Shown in pieces: positions 14,407-63,413 of a stretch of DNA of 64,000 bases (its first letter is position 1; every line of letters begins with the position of its first letter). The stretch is from NCBI RefSeq assembly GCF_003334355.1, contig NZ_QOWP01000009.1. One strand, written 5' to 3'. The notes beneath the pieces were generated by a model. It worked only from the letters and a program-made list of their open reading frames with translations, searched no databases and was not told the origin of the DNA. The translations under genes and the position numbers were made by a program. The DNA comes from Escherichia coli (lineage in GTDB: Bacteria > Pseudomonadota > Gammaproteobacteria > Enterobacterales > Enterobacteriaceae).

Positions 14407-14643
14407 TTAACGCAGCGCCCACCACTCGCGCAGACAGGCTTTTCCTTCCGGGCAGCTTTTACAACTGCCGGAGAGGCAGCCGTCAGGTTCTTCCTGAATC
14501 CGCACGGCTTTGCCCATACTTTCCAGTTGTTGCAGCATGGCGTTAATCATTGGCTGCGGAGTGTGCAATGTCTGGCTTATCTGGGCCGCTTCCATACGGC
14601 CCCGTAACGCCAGCAAATCACGCACCTGAATAAGTGAAGCCAT
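14407..14643 (-). CDS. feoC: Ferrous iron transport protein C
   Basis: 78 aa from the ATG at 14641-14643 (ORF track starts 3 codons earlier); Cys cluster '[15 protein letters not shown]'; start overlaps the feoB stop (TAATG). Confidence 0.9.
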
Positions 14644-16964
14644 TAATGGCAATCACCGGTGGTGCTGGCTGCGCAGCAACTACTTACCGACTTGCGGGTT
14701 GCCAGCAGTTCGATATCCACCCGGCTACGCGCGCGGCGCAGCAGACCGATAACCACGATGTTAAACAGGATAACCGCCAGAATGCACACCAGGCTGTAAG
14801 TTGGGTGCTGACTGTAGCTGGCGACCTGATAGAACAATGTTGCCAGCGAGTAAGCGATATTCAGCCCCCACAGGATGGAGAAGCCCATCCAGCCACGGCT
14901 TGATTCACGGGCGATGGCTCCCATCACCGAGATACATGGTACATACAGCAGGACGAAAATCAGGTAGCTGTAAGCTGCTGCTGCGCTACCGAATTTCTGA
15001 TCCATCACGCCCATCGCCCCGGTACCCATTTCGCCGTCGCCTTTGCTGGCTTCAATGGGGTTCATCAGTACGCTAAGGCTGAAGGTGTCTTTCAGGCTCT
15101 GCCAGGTTTCATCTATCGCACTGAACAGCTCTTCACCGAGGTTAAACTCTGCCGGATTGAACTCTTCGTCCTGAATATTTTCTGCGGTGTAGAGGGTGTT
15201 GAGCGTACCCACTACCACTTCTTTCGCCATGGCACCTGTAAACAGGCCAACCGTTGCCTGCCAGTTATCTTCATGCACGCCAATTGGCTTGAAGACCGGG
15301 GTGATCACCCGGCTGACGGACGCCAGCGCCGAGTCGTTGATGTTATCGACGATTTTCCCGCTCAGCGAGAAGCTGTTGAAAGCGCTCAGGAAAATGCTGA
15401 CGATGATGATCACTTTACCAGCACGCAGAACGAAGCCTTTCAGACGCTGCCAGGTCTGGATAATCAGGCTTTTAACGTGTGGTACATGATAGACCGGCAA
15501 CTCCATGACAAACGGCGTCGCTTCACCGCGCATGATGGTGTACTTGAGCATCAGGCCAGTCAGCACCGCCATCACAATACCCAGCATATACAGCGAGAAG
15601 ACCGCCAGCGCACCGTTCTGCCCGAAGAAGGCAGCCGCGAATACTGCGAAGATAGCCAGACGCGCGCCGCAGGACATAAACGGTGCCATCATGATGGTCA
15701 TCAGACGTTCACGCGGTGCATCAAGCGTACGTGCACCCATTACCGACGGTACGTTACAACCGAAACCGACGATCAGCGGCACAAAGGATTTCCCCGGCAA
15801 GCCCAGCGCCTGCATCAGACGGTCCATCACAAACGCCGCACGCGCCATATACCCGGAGTCCTCAAGGAAGGAGAGGAACAGGTACATCATGCCAATCTGC
15901 GGCACCAGTGGCAGCACGGTGTTAATGCCGCCACCCAGGCCCTGGGCGAGGAAGATAGTCAGCCAGTCCGGGAAGTGGAGCGTGTAGCCAATCCATTGAA
16001 TACCATGCACAAATAGCGCCACGGAGCCGACGTCAAACAGCGGCTGTAACGCCCCGCCGATGTTGATAGCCAGCAGGAACATCAGGTACATCACAAAGAG
16101 GAAAATCGGCAGACCGAGGAAACGGTTGAGCACGATTTTATCTACCGCAGTGGTGAAACGGCTGGGTTCTGCCGTCAGGGTGTTGCTTACCACATCACAG
16201 ATGGCAGCAATGCACTGGTAACGCGCATCGGCAATGTGCAGCGCCGGATCGTCCATCTCATTACGCAGACGGGCGAGGGCGGCATCCAGATGCTGCGACG
16301 CTTCACCGGCGTAGGCGCGGCTGTAGATATCGCCTTCCAGCATTTGCAGGCCCAGCCAGCGACGTTGTTTCAGCGGGATGTCGGAAGGCATCACTTTTGC
16401 CAGTGAATCTGCTTCGTTGAGCAGCGGCTGTGCGTAATGCACCAGTTCCACATTCTCGTTAGCTTTATAGCGATCAATCGCCAGCTTGAGCGCTTCAATA
16501 CCGCGACCACGGGTTGAAACCAGCGGGATCACCGGACAGCCCAGACGCGCCGACAGAGCATCAATTTCAATACGAATATTTTGCTTCTCGGCAATGTCGA
16601 GCATGTTCAGTGCCACAATGCAGGGAATGCCGAGTTCCAGCAGTTGTAGCGTCAGGTACAGGTTACGCTCAAGGTTAGACGCATCCACCACGTTAATCAG
16701 CAGGTCGGCGTCGCCACTCAAAATGTAGTGACAGGCGATTTGCTCATCGAGCGAGGTCTGCGATGAGATGGTGGTCAGAGAATAGGTGCCGGGCAGGTCC
16801 ACCAGCGTGACCTGATGATCGGTGGTGGAGAATTGCCCTTCTTTACGTTCGACGGTAACGCCAGCCCAGTTACCTACACGCTGACGTGCGCCAGTGAGCT
16901 GGTTAAATAAGGTTGTCTTGCCAGAATTTGGATTACCAATTAAGCCTATGGTTAATTTTTTCAT
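14643..16964 (-). CDS. feoB: Ferrous iron transporter FeoB (GTPase plus permease)
   Basis: 773 aa from [18 protein letters not shown] (G1 motif); ATG confirmed at 16962-16964; long hydrophobic C-terminal domain. Confidence 0.97.
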
Positions 16965-16980
16965 TGTTGTTATCACCGTA

Positions 16981-17208
16981 TTAACAGGAAACCGCTTCCA
17001 CTTCTAATAAGGCCAGATCTTTTTTGCGTAATACCAGGCTCACACGACGGGTTTCGATATGAATGGGGTCGCCGAGTGGAGCGACGCGCACCACATTAAA
17101 AGAGGAGCCAGGTAACATGCCAAGAGAAAGCAGTTTTTGGCGATATGCCGGGCTGATTTCACGGGAAAAGCCAGTGATTTTCCACGCAGTATCTGGAGTG
17201 TATTGCAT
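16981..17208 (-). CDS. feoA: Ferrous iron transport protein A
   Basis: 75 aa small ORF immediately upstream of feoB. Confidence 0.93.
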
Positions 17209-17318
17209 AGGTGCCTACTTGTTTCTCATTAACTGGATAACTACCTCATGGGGCGTTTGACAGCGACATGAGACCAGATGATTTGCCAACAAAGGAGAGA
17301 TTAAATAATCAACAACAC

Positions 17319-17337
17319 AATGATAATGAGAATGGTT
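17319..17337. promoter_or_regulatory. Fur-box-like AT-rich motif upstream of feoA
   Basis: AATGATAATGAGAATGGTT, partial match to the Fur box consensus GATAATGATAATCATTATC, about 110 bp upstream of feoA. Confidence 0.45.
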
Positions 17338-17397
17338 TCTATCAGCAATACTTAAAATGTGTGCGAATGTTGGTTTGAATAATAATCTGACTCAATG

Positions 17398-17411
17398 TTG
17401 ATGTGGCTCAA
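17398..17411. promoter_or_regulatory. FNR-like site upstream of feoA
   Basis: TTGATgtggCTCAA, one mismatch to TTGAT-N4-ATCAA. Confidence 0.4.
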
Positions 17412-17536
17412 GGTTATATCGCAGCGAAAATATAATTCGAATAGTGAATTACCCGGACTGGCTAATGTTTAATTAAGGTTTCAGTTGTTAATGAAGTGAT
17501 AAATATTGCCGGAATATATTATGAGTTTGGTTGTGG

Positions 17537-17564
17537 AATAAAAAGGCCGGAGATATTCTCCGGC
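17537..17564 (-). terminator. Intrinsic terminator downstream of tex
   Basis: GCCGGAGATATTCTCCGGC hairpin followed on the minus strand by CTTTTTATT. Confidence 0.7.
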
Positions 17565-17590
17565 ACTTTTATGTCAGGCAAAGCGTTCGT

Positions 17591-17625
17591 TGCCAGATGC
17601 GGCGTGAACGCCTTATCGCGCAGGT
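17591..17625. repeat. REP-like element downstream of tex
   Basis: TGCCAGATGCGGCGTGAACGCCTTATCGCGCAGG resembles the REP consensus. Confidence 0.5.
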
Positions 17626-17645
17626 TTAGGGGCCAGTCCGGGCGT

Positions 17646-19967
17646 TTAACGTTTTTTGCCCATTGCCGCCGCCAGCGCATCCATCATCGCGCTATTACCG
17701 GCAGGCTGCGCTTCACGACCGCGTGGTTTGGCTGCCGGGCGGTTGTTTTGCGGGCGTTCATTACCGCCGCCGCGACGGGCGTTGGTTTCGCCAGGCTGCT
17801 CGTCCAGACGCATAGTCAGGGCGATACGTTTACGCTGAAGATCCACTTCCAGCACTTTCACCTTCACAATGTCGCCCGCTTTCACCACGGTATGCGGATC
17901 TTCCACAAACTTGTTCGACAATGAAGAGATGTGAACCAGGCCGTCCTGATGCACGCCGATATCGACAAACGCGCCAAAGTTGGTGACGTTGGTCACCGCA
18001 CCTTCGAGGATCATACCCGGTTGCAGGTCGTTCATTGTCTCGACGCCATCGGCAAACTGAGCGGTTTTAAATTCCGGACGCGGATCGCGACCCGGTTTTT
18101 CCAGCTCTTTGATGATGTCAGTTACTGTCGGCACACCGAATTTTTCATCAGTAAAGTCAGACGCTTTCAGGTTACGCAGTTCGCTGCTGTTACCCATCAG
18201 ATCTTTCAGTGCCTGCTGTGTTGCTGCCAGAATGCGTTCCACCACCGGATAGGCTTCCGGGTGGACGGTAGAAGCATCCAGCGGGTTATCACCGTGGTTA
18301 ATGCGCAAGAAGCCCGCGCACTGCTCGAAGGCTTTCGGCCCCAGACGGCTGACTTTCAGCAGTTGCTGACGGTTCTGGAACTGGCCGTTCTCATCGCGCC
18401 AGGCCACGATGTTTTGCGCCATCATGCGCGTCAGGCCCGCCACGCGGGTTAACAGCGGAACAGAAGCAGTGTTGAGATCGACGCCAACGGCGTTTACGCA
18501 GTCTTCTACTACTGCGTCCAGTTTGCGGGCCAGTTGCGTCTGGCTGACGTCATGCTGATACTGACCTACGCCGATAGATTTCGGATCGATTTTCACCAGC
18601 TCCGCCAGCGGATCCTGCAAACGGCGGGCGATAGACACCGCGCCACGCAGCGAAACGTCGAGATCCGGGAACTCCTGCGCTGCCAGCTCGGAAGCTGAGT
18701 AAACCGACGCGCCAGCTTCGCTGACGATCACTTTCTGTGCGGTCACTTTCGGGAACTGCTTCTGCACGTCGAGATAGAAACGTTCAGTTTCGCGGGAAGC
18801 TGTACCGTTGCCGATCGCCACCAGTTCAACGTTATGTTTTTCACACAAGGCAGCAACGGTCATCGCTGCTTTTGCGGCTTGTCCGGTGTGCGGGTAAATG
18901 GTATCGGTCGCTACCAGTTTGCCAGTGGCATCGACCACCGCCACTTTTACCCCAGTACGCAGACCCGGATCGAGGCCCATCGTTGCACGCAGTCCGGCAG
19001 GGGCCGCCATCAGCAGATCGTGCAGGTTACGGGCAAAGACGTTGATTGCTTCATCTTCCGCGCGTTCGCGCACGGTACCCATCAGTTCGGTTTCCAGATG
19101 CATCAGCACCTTGATGCGCCAGGTCCAGCTCACTACGCCTTTGCGCCAGCTATCCGCCGGGGCATTGTTCAGGCGCAGGCCAAGGTGATCCATGATGATT
19201 TGCTCGCAATAGCTCTCTTTGGGCGGCTCATCGAACTGCGGATCGGCATTCAGCGAAAGCTGGAGTACGCCTTCGTTACGCCCACGGAACATCGCCAGCG
19301 CGCGGTGAGAAGGCACCGTGGACAACGGTTCGTGATGATCGAAATAGTCGCGGAATTTCGCCCCTTCCTCTTCTTTACCGCTCACCACCGTAGAAACCAA
19401 ATGCGCGTTCTTCCACAGATAATCACGCACTTTCGCCAGCAGCGCGGCATCTTCGGCAAACCGTTCCATCAGGATATAGCGCGCGCCATCCAGCGCGGCT
19501 TTGGTATCTGCCACGCCTTTATCGGCATCAACATATTGTGCAGCGGCGACTTCTGGCGTGTGTGACGGATCGCTCCACAGCAGGTCAGCCAACGGCTCAA
19601 GCCCTGCTTCAATGGCGATTTGCCCGCGGGTGCGGCGTTTAGGTTTGTAGGGCAGGTAGAGGTCTTCGAGTTCGGTTTTGCTTAGGGTGGCGTTGATGGC
19701 CTTCGCCAGATCATCGGTGAGTTTGCCTTGCTCGGAAATGGACTTGAGGATCGCCTGACGTCTCTCTTCCAGCTCGCGCAGATAGCTCAGACGCGTTTCC
19801 AGATTACGCAGCTGCGTGTCATCCAGACCGCCGGTGATTTCCTTACGATAACGTGCGATAAACGGCACGGTATTCCCTTCGTCAAGCAGGCGAACGGCAG
19901 CGTCAACCTGTTCCGGGCGCGCCTGAATTTCACCCGCAATAATGCGGCAGAACGAATCATTCATCAT
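17646..19967 (-). CDS. tex: Transcription accessory protein Tex (YhgF)
   Basis: 773 aa; C-terminal S1 RNA-binding domain region; followed by a hairpin terminator. Confidence 0.93.
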
Positions 19968-31844: not shown

Positions 31845-31874
31845 GCCGGATAACGCGTTCACGCCGTATCCGGC
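31845..31874. repeat. REP element between nudE and mrcA
   Basis: GCCGGATAACGCGTTCACGCCGTATCCGGC. Confidence 0.65.
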
Positions 31875-31902
31875 ATAAACAAGTGCACTTTGTCAGCAAA
31901 CT

Positions 31903-63399: not shown

Positions 63400-63413
63400 T
63401 TGATGTAAATCAA
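63400..63413 (-). promoter_or_regulatory. FNR binding site of the nirB promoter
   Basis: Perfect TTGATgtaaATCAA centred about 65 bp upstream of the nirB ATG. Confidence 0.8.

Follow-up and report, generated by a model that had tools for sequence, protein, structure and literature searches.

Promoter, leader and distal end signals in the DNA upstream of feoABC in Escherichia coli

Feo-mediated uptake of ferrous iron matters for anaerobic growth and for gut colonisation, and the feo promoter is a textbook case of signals for iron, oxygen, redox state and envelope or osmotic stress converging on one operon. Within the 64-kb stretch of E. coli DNA analysed here (the window, to which all positions refer unless stated otherwise), a sequence-only reading had proposed that the 437 bp preceding feoA are its control region, and had pointed to a Fur-box-like and an FNR-like motif within them. 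The question raised by this locus is whether those motifs are the operators that act on feoABC, and what the remainder of the interval contains. We hold it very probable that the interval comprises the sigma-70 promoter and leader of E. coli feoABC together with the 3' end signals of tex. The literature already documents the feoABC promoter and its inputs from Fur, FNR, ArcA and OmpR, and to confirm the sites brings no new knowledge of E. coli; the comparative data do, however, lead to two small, testable points, namely, the strictly conserved far-upstream position of FNR and a strongly conserved leader that is unexplained.

The interval and its distal end

The gene order given by the open reading frames and RefSeq annotation is bioH, rpnA, feoC, feoB, feoA, tex (yhgF), greB, ompR, which is that of the annotated E. 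coli locus, and the 437-bp query (17209-17645) has a match in every one of the 5426 complete E. coli genomes, at up to 99.8% identity. The interval is intergenic, lying between the tex/yhgF stop codon (17646-17648) and the feoA ATG (17208). The three feo genes and tex are all on the minus strand, with feo downstream of tex. The strand of the motifs was absent from the sequence-only reading; the motif letters given there are plus-strand readings of minus-strand sites. The coding features are as follows:

16981-17208, minus strand: feoA coding sequence, 75 amino acids
14643-16964, minus strand: feoB coding sequence, ATG at 16964
14643-14407, minus strand: feoC coding sequence
14641-14645, minus strand: UAAUG overlap of the feoB stop and feoC start codons, in which TAA and ATG share one base

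The feoA stop codon is separated from the feoB ATG by 16 nt. The TAATG in which the feoB stop and the feoC start had been said to overlap is indeed present, reading from 14645 to 14641 on the minus strand, and in MG1655 RefSeq likewise annotates an overlap of 1 nt; from the overlapping codons, translation of feoB and feoC would be coupled via UAAUG. The description of the region upstream of feoA as AT-rich was also correct, its GC content being 0.32-0.385 across 17200-17600 vs about 0.5-0.65 in the flanks.

The promoter-proximal ~330 bp next to feoA are 100% identical to K-12 MG1655, and published MG1655 maps can therefore be transferred directly to the window. Coordinates were converted by window = 17208 + (3540163 - x), where x is the U00096.3 coordinate and U00096.3 = U00096.2 + 1978. 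Overall, the intergenic region is 456 bp in MG1655 vs 437 bp in the window; the two differ by one 19-bp indel, by base differences around that indel, and by a few SNPs distal to the promoter. Two features belonging to tex lie at this distal end:

17536-17572, minus strand: intrinsic terminator of tex/yhgF, GCCGGAGAatatCTCCGGC then CTTTTTATT, from a terminator scan and its inverted repeat
17591-17617, minus strand: core of a REP (repetitive extragenic palindrome), just 3' of the tex/yhgF stop codon, in a REP element 19 bp shorter than that of MG1655

The terminator hairpin (17564-17546) consists of eight pairs, six of them GC, and is followed by the T-run of CTTTTTATT; the inverted repeat is 88% complementary with a 3-nt loop, and, with an A-run and a T-run on opposite sides, the terminator looks bidirectional. 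Two further copies of the REP core, at 31849-31875 and 44751-44777, occur in the window with three or fewer mismatches, where none is expected. Because the terminator and the REP occupy the distal ~105 bp (about 17536-17645), this part is not feo control DNA. The view that the 437 bp upstream of feoA are its control DNA thus holds for the part that contains the promoter and leader, but not for the approximately one-quarter that is the 3' end of tex. Several Rfam matches were discarded. The STnc390 match over the tex terminator (26.9 bits vs a gathering score of 50) was judged to be a terminator look-alike; the orthologous loci of Salmonella, Citrobacter and E. albertii lack it, and a literature search found no paper that mentions STnc390. 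A weak, sub-threshold match to naRNA4 reflects the REP element, and one to HrrF (E = 0.16) was considered noise.

Core promoter and Fur operators

The following features make up the promoter and the Fur-binding DNA around it:

17313, minus strand: feoABC transcription start site, 105 nt upstream of the ATG, by high-throughput 5' end mapping (Mendoza-Vargas 2009)
17320-17325, minus strand: -10 hexamer TATCAT, assigned by Mendoza-Vargas 2009 and conserved in orthologues
17343-17348, minus strand: -35 hexamer TTGCTG, from the Mendoza-Vargas 2009 promoter assignment with a spacer of 17
17313-17346, minus strand: main Fur operator, the hexamer array CTGATA GAAACC ATTCTC ATTATC ATTGTG, from ChIP-exo, predictions and conservation
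17369-17399, minus strand: second, weaker predicted Fur cluster of three in-phase 11/19 matches, abutting the FNR site

Mendoza-Vargas 2009 placed the feoA 5' end at -105, with the -35 element within GTATTGCTG and the -10 element within ATTATCAT across a 17-bp spacer, an assignment that comes from one high-throughput 5' end read class and aerobic-type cultures. The ArcA-site offsets given by Park 2013 imply a start at 17314, within 1 nt of that position, and a single feoA start site is listed by Myers 2013; the start-site tables of Kim 2012 do not list feoA. A generic sigma-70 promoter scan reported no promoter in the region, but the feo promoter has only eight of 12 consensus matches, which is below threshold, and the scan is thus uninformative. 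It had been anticipated, from the distance between the motifs and the start codon, that there would be either a long leader or additional elements. Both are found: the published start site yields a 105-nt leader, and ArcA, OmpR, RstA-like and second-Fur elements lie upstream.

A FeoA search of species-representative genomes yielded 80 enterobacterial loci, from which a block alignment was made for 27 species and the FNR spacing was counted in the 77 Enterobacteriaceae species having the -10 block. The alignment shows discrete conserved blocks with unconserved DNA between them; the blocks are the ArcA/OmpR motif, the GAAACCTTAATTAAACATTAG block, the FNR site, part of the second Fur cluster, the RstA-like box and the Fur/-10 block. 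In the last of these, ATTGnTGATArAAACCATTCTCATTATCAT is nearly invariant over the 27 species and includes the -35 TTG (itself nearly invariant among the orthologues), the Fur array and the -10 hexamer; AACCATTCTCATTATCAT, in the same block, is likewise nearly invariant.

The Fur motif originally proposed, AATGATAATGAGAATGG as read on the plus strand at 17319-17335, is centred 119 bp upstream of the ATG and lies inside a Fur ChIP-exo footprint determined in MG1655, where the sequence is identical. In the supplement to Gao 2023 this footprint is peak P104, 3538047-3538080, found in iron-replete cells only and corresponding to window positions 17346-17313. Overlapping Fur sites at 3538059 and 3538065 (window 17334 and 17328) had been predicted by information theory (Chen 2007), and Fur was shown to repress a feoA-lacZ fusion anaerobically (Beauchene 2015). 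Relative to the start site at 17313, the array at 17316-17346 spans -3 to -33 and includes the -10 TATCAT; covering as it does the -35/-10 spacer and the -10 element, it has the classic arrangement for occlusion. Fe2+-Fur bound over the spacer, the -10 hexamer and the start site would thereby repress by occluding RNA polymerase.

Neither the second Fur cluster nor the ArcA/OmpR site described below appears in the sequence-only reading. The core of the second cluster, CAGATTAT, is partly conserved in the 27-species alignment, and Chen 2007 predicted a 10.5-bit Fur site at 3538006, which is window position 17387; according to the same paper, two Fur boxes were already marked by Kammler 1993. The cluster is outside the Gao 2023 ChIP-exo footprint. 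As it abuts the FNR site, this predicted cluster may allow Fur to interfere with FNR.

The FNR site and elements farther upstream

Upstream of the core promoter are the FNR site and further elements:

17398-17411, minus strand: FNR site TTGAGCCACATCAA, matching nine of 10 consensus positions (TTGAT-N4-ATCAA) and centred at -91.5
17358-17373, minus strand: RstA/OmpR-like box CCAACAttcgCACACA, about -45 to -60, noted in Gerken 2020
17462-17482, minus strand: conserved block GAAACCTTAATTAAACATTAG, 70-80% identical to E. coli in 27 Enterobacteriaceae species and with unconserved DNA on both sides
17485-17505, plus strand: ArcA direct-repeat site TTGTTAATGAAGTGATAAATA, about -172 to -192, a Park 2013 ChIP site that is conserved in orthologues
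17502-17486, minus strand: OmpR motif TTATCAnnnnnTTAACA, overlapping the ArcA repeat (Gerken 2020)

On the plus strand the FNR site reads TTGATGTGGCTCAA, and its centre is 196.5 bp upstream of the ATG. The TTGAT-N4-CTCAA sequence originally picked out at 17398-17411 is the exact 14-mer, TTGAGCCACATCAA, listed in the supplement to Myers 2013 at 3537982 as the site in the MG1655 feoA FNR ChIP-seq peak, the summit of which is at 3537996. Myers 2013 also reported that feoABC is activated by FNR, an effect masked by Fur in iron-replete medium, and anaerobic feo induction was attributed to ArcA and FNR by Beauchene 2015. A comparison with Fur and FNR ChIP maps had been suggested as a check, and the published in vivo footprint and peak, from MG1655 with its identical sequence, coincide with both motifs. 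The proposal that the two motifs fit the established regulation of feo by iron and anaerobiosis is thereby supported. The sequence-only reader had, in short, found true operators amid AT-rich DNA.

Farther upstream, the Park 2013 supplement gives an ArcA ChIP site at 3537888-3537908, stated as -191 to -171 and equivalent to window 17505-17485, and the same study found feoABC to be activated by ArcA, its expression being 3.7-fold lower when ArcA was absent. According to Gerken 2020, purified OmpR shifted, in EMSA, only the feo fragment carrying TTATCAtttcaTTAACA (window 17502-17486), a result obtained at the level of fragments and with unphosphorylated protein, and overexpression of OmpR had a 2-fold effect on feo. 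That report also describes a smaller feo fragment with one predicted OmpR motif that unphosphorylated OmpR did not shift; that single motif is presumably the RstA/OmpR-like box. At the position of this box, Salmonella and Citrobacter have TACATTCCGTCACA, which is close to the RstA box consensus, TACATNTNGTTACA. The conserved GAAACCTTAATTAAACATTAG block contains tandem GAAAC/TAAAC elements ~10 bp apart, which look OmpR-like. ArcA and OmpR would add further input from upstream of the FNR site.

The FNR site is positioned with little freedom. In 74 of the 77 species, the centre of the best FNR-like site (zero to three mismatches) is 84-85 bp from the final base of the -10 hexamer, despite leader lengths that range from 38 to 240 nt in the same species set, which ties the FNR site to the mapped promoter. 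This geometry is that of class I activation, with the helical phase kept: the FNR centre is at -91.5, and the 84-85 bp to the -10 hexamer is maintained across genera. It is not that of class II, in which the centre would be near -41.5, and there is no -10-like hexamer ~32 bp downstream of the FNR centre. Judged from the spacing, FNR would activate anaerobically from a far-upstream position of the class I type, on the helix face occupied by the polymerase. As an activating position for FNR, -91.5 is unusual.

Most natural FNR-activated promoters are class II (-41.5), and it is therefore reasonable to ask whether the FNR site might instead serve a separate upstream promoter, with FNR at -41.5, a start near 17363, a leader of ~155 nt, and the Fur array acting as a downstream roadblock. 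Two promoters have been proposed for Yersinia pestis feo, and the start-site data used here come from one high-throughput study under non-anaerobic conditions; both points leave some room for this arrangement. However, the hexamer that it requires, AACCAA (17375-17370), is not -10-like, the closest TATTAT (17384-17379) lies no more than ~20 bp from the centre of the FNR site, the promoter scan is empty there, and the DNA at the expected class II -10 position is poorly conserved. The single start site in Myers 2013 and the fixed distance between FNR and the downstream -10 hexamer also speak against it. We consider such a promoter very unlikely, and it was rejected on sequence and spacing.

A further doubt is that the motifs have no function and match by chance in AT-rich intergenic DNA. 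Judged by sequence statistics, the Fur and FNR motifs are no more than suggestive. No 19-mer with three or fewer mismatches to the Fur consensus was found in the region, and mismatch profiles and in-phase arrays were used instead. When the 437 bp were dinucleotide-shuffled 2000 times, a single 13/19 Fur match arose in 340 cases (17%), and 14 positions in the 64 kb score 13 or more; a lone match of this quality is mediocre and not significant. An FNR match with at most one mismatch was obtained in 75 of 2000 local shuffles (3.75%), and the window holds seven such sites vs 2.3 expected, several of the six others (at least 9/10) being inside genes. The three Fur 19-mers at 17316, 17322 and 17328, with scores of 13, 13 and 12 of 19, are nevertheless in phase at 6-bp intervals, a triple that appeared in 11 of 2000 local dinucleotide shuffles and is unique within the window, and the Fur triple and FNR match occurred jointly in none of 2000. 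With published occupancy by Fur and FNR in vivo at these coordinates in MG1655, and near-invariance across the Enterobacteriaceae, chance is practically refuted as an explanation. The reading retained is the mapped sigma-70 promoter, with the Fur array over it and the FNR site in a class I type position.

The feoA leader and comparison with known systems

If the region holds anything new, it would be in the leader, the features of which are:

17209-17312, minus strand: 5' untranslated leader, 105 nt by the published start site
17218-17214, minus strand: Shine-Dalgarno-like GUAGG in the feoA leader

When E. coli is compared with E. albertii or E. whittamii, the leader carries only one or two substitutions in 106 nt, whereas the feoA coding sequence has 9-10 in 228 nt and the spacer from -275 to -206 has 19-21 in 70 nt. 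The feoA substitutions are synonymous, because both FeoA proteins are 100% identical to the query. On these counts, the Escherichia leader is far more conserved than the neutral expectation, and the cause is unexplained. Small open reading frames in the leader (MSLSNAP and an ATG-AGG-TAG mini-ORF) were rejected, having no Shine-Dalgarno sequence and not being conserved in Salmonella.

The conservation invites the suggestion that the leader is itself regulatory, in addition to the promoter, whether as an RNA hairpin, as the target of a protein or sRNA that affects translation or stability, or as a DNA operator, e.g., for the winged-helix protein FeoC. An extended hairpin can be drawn for the E. 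coli leader, pairing CUGG (17277-17274) with CCAG (17236-17233) and UCUCAUG (17273-17267) with CAUGAGG (17250-17244), and in most genera the corresponding place holds a GC-rich hairpin or inverted repeat, the stem sequences of which are unrelated. Within Escherichia, Citrobacter and Salmonella, however, the observed stem changes affect one side and disrupt pairing, with none that compensates. The predicted fold of the E. coli leader is no more stable than those of its shuffles (z = -0.18), folding z-scores of individual species average only -0.49 over 34 species, RNAalifold predicted zero pairs on 45 leaders, and an Rfam search of the leader found no family match even at E values up to 10. Moreover, ~70 nt of the leader are missing in the lineage of Enterobacter, Leclercia, Lelliottia, Huaxiibacter and Silvania, leaving only ~34 nt in the Enterobacter clade. 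Two transcriptome-wide CsrA studies include feoABC only as changed in expression, with no CsrA site on the feoA leader, and the E. coli CsrA study records many such effects on iron genes without CLIP-seq peaks. A text search of the literature for feoA with UTR, sRNA or Hfq returned no paper in which an sRNA or Hfq is reported to act on it. A regulatory role for the leader, which would add to the promoter and not replace it, is rated unlikely.

The promoter can be set beside its closest described counterparts. The Salmonella enterica feoA promoter has the same Fur/-10 block and FNR spacing, and its RstA-box-like element likewise lies between the FNR site and the -35 hexamer; the difference is that Salmonella carries TACATTCCGTCACA where the window has the degenerate AACATTCGCACACA. 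The RstA box of the Salmonella promoter was described by Jeon 2008, as related in papers citing it. In Yersinia pestis, too, feoA is preceded by a long intergenic region (~396 bp), which holds a Fur site as well as putative motifs for FNR and ArcA. According to published work, however, its DNA is not significantly similar to that of the E. coli region, FNR, ArcA and RstA have no effect in Y. pestis, and the two promoters proposed there contrast with the one documented start site in the window.

The K-12 feoABC promoter (feoAp), described by Kammler 1993 and since mapped genome-wide for Fur, FNR and ArcA, is of course the same locus, sharing the FNR 14-mer, the Fur array, the -35 and -10 hexamers, the start site, the ArcA/OmpR site and the operon structure. 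It differs in the REP 3' of tex, which is 19 bp shorter in the window, and in a few distal SNPs. One of these SNPs is at position 17496 within the ArcA/OmpR motif, where the window has C and K-12 has T; C is also present in the other three E. coli strains that were compared.

At class I promoters, activators of the CRP/FNR type reportedly bind at upstream sites centred at -61.5, -71.5, -82.5 and -92.5. The feo FNR centre at -91.5 is in helical phase with this series, and the family keeps its spacing constant, but at feo the polymerase and the FNR site are separated by the RstA/OmpR-like box and the second Fur cluster. To our knowledge, how FNR activates feo from -91.5 has yet to be dissected; the rigid 84-85 bp between FNR and promoter would make feo a natural model for FNR activation from so far upstream.

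Polymorphism in the feoA promoter and its conserved block

The mapped feoA start and the few bases directly 5' of it (17313-17316, minus strand) are polymorphic in E. coli: these positions read GTTG in the window and in K-12, ACTA in O157, and ACTG in both LF82 and EcPF5. The flanking -10 and early leader were invariant over the E. coli strains compared. A further polymorphism falls at 17496, within the ArcA/OmpR motif, where the window, O157, LF82, and EcPF5 have C and K-12 MG1655 has T; among these strains it is K-12 that carries the unusual allele. Between that motif and the feoA FNR site lies a conserved block.

17496, ArcA/OmpR motif: alleles TTATCAcTTCATTAACA versus TTATCAtTTCATTAACA
17462-17482, minus strand, conserved block: GAAACCTTAATTAAACATTAG

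Conservation of this block is 70-80% over 27 species, and the feo promoter literature examined assigns no factor to it. Judged by its bases, the block looks OmpR-like, in that GAAAC and TAAAC occur in tandem ~10 bp apart.

The feoA leader and apparent losses of feo genes

The feoA leader (17209-17312, minus strand) is near-invariant across Escherichia species, with 1-2 substitutions in 106 nt, whereas feoA synonymous sites and the upstream spacer have diverged. Folding and Rfam searches of the leader for an RNA structure or RNA family gave no support for either. In other genera the equivalent place holds a GC-rich hairpin whose sequence is unrelated, and ~70 nt of the leader is absent from the Enterobacter clade. 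In Klebsiella indica, the -10 and the ATG are 240 nt apart, as opposed to about 105-110 nt in its relatives, and this spacing implies a putative insertion of ~130 nt in the leader.

Coverage of at least 80% of the tex-feoA intergenic region was missing in 28 of the 5426 complete E. coli genomes. In the urine isolate EC488 (NZ_CP109874.1; locus L083, 3001-3900), 123 bp of the intergenic region remain and then give way to an IS1 element, and the next gene beyond it is rtcB; feoABC and neighbouring genes therefore appear to have been lost through an IS1-associated deletion. The LF82 assembly (NZ_CP082771.1; locus L085, 538-637) carries a feoA pseudogene, annotated as truncated, and inside it begins a shortened feoB; this suggests an internal feoA-feoB deletion in that assembly.

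The REP element and tex terminator

The REP element directly 3' of the tex stop shows a 19-bp length polymorphism (window 17618-17645 versus MG1655 locus L002, 2708-2770). The short form is present in the window, O157, and LF82; the long form, found in MG1655 and EcPF5, has an additional hairpin arm. Two further copies of the REP core lie in the window.

31849-31875 and 44751-44777, REP core: GATAAGGCGTTCACGCCGCATCyGGCA

An Rfam match to the Salmonella sRNA STnc390 (17529-17578, plus strand; 26.9 bits, below the gathering score of 50) overlies the bidirectional tex terminator. The orthologous loci of Salmonella, Citrobacter, and E. albertii lack the match, and it was thus rejected as a terminator look-alike.

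FNR sites at other positions

Cedecea davisae and C. neteri retain the Fur/-10 block. Neither has an FNR-like site at the conserved distance of 84-85 bp; perfect FNR sites, TTGATCTAAATCAA and TTGATTTAAATCAA, instead precede the ATG by about 370-380 bp. The window itself contains a perfect FNR consensus far from feoA.

63400-63413, perfect FNR consensus: TTGATGTAAATCAA

This sequence is the reverse complement of TTGATTTACATCAA, the nirB FNR site in the list of Myers 2013, and it lies ~46 kb from the feoA FNR site; the two published sites are separated by a matching distance in the genome.
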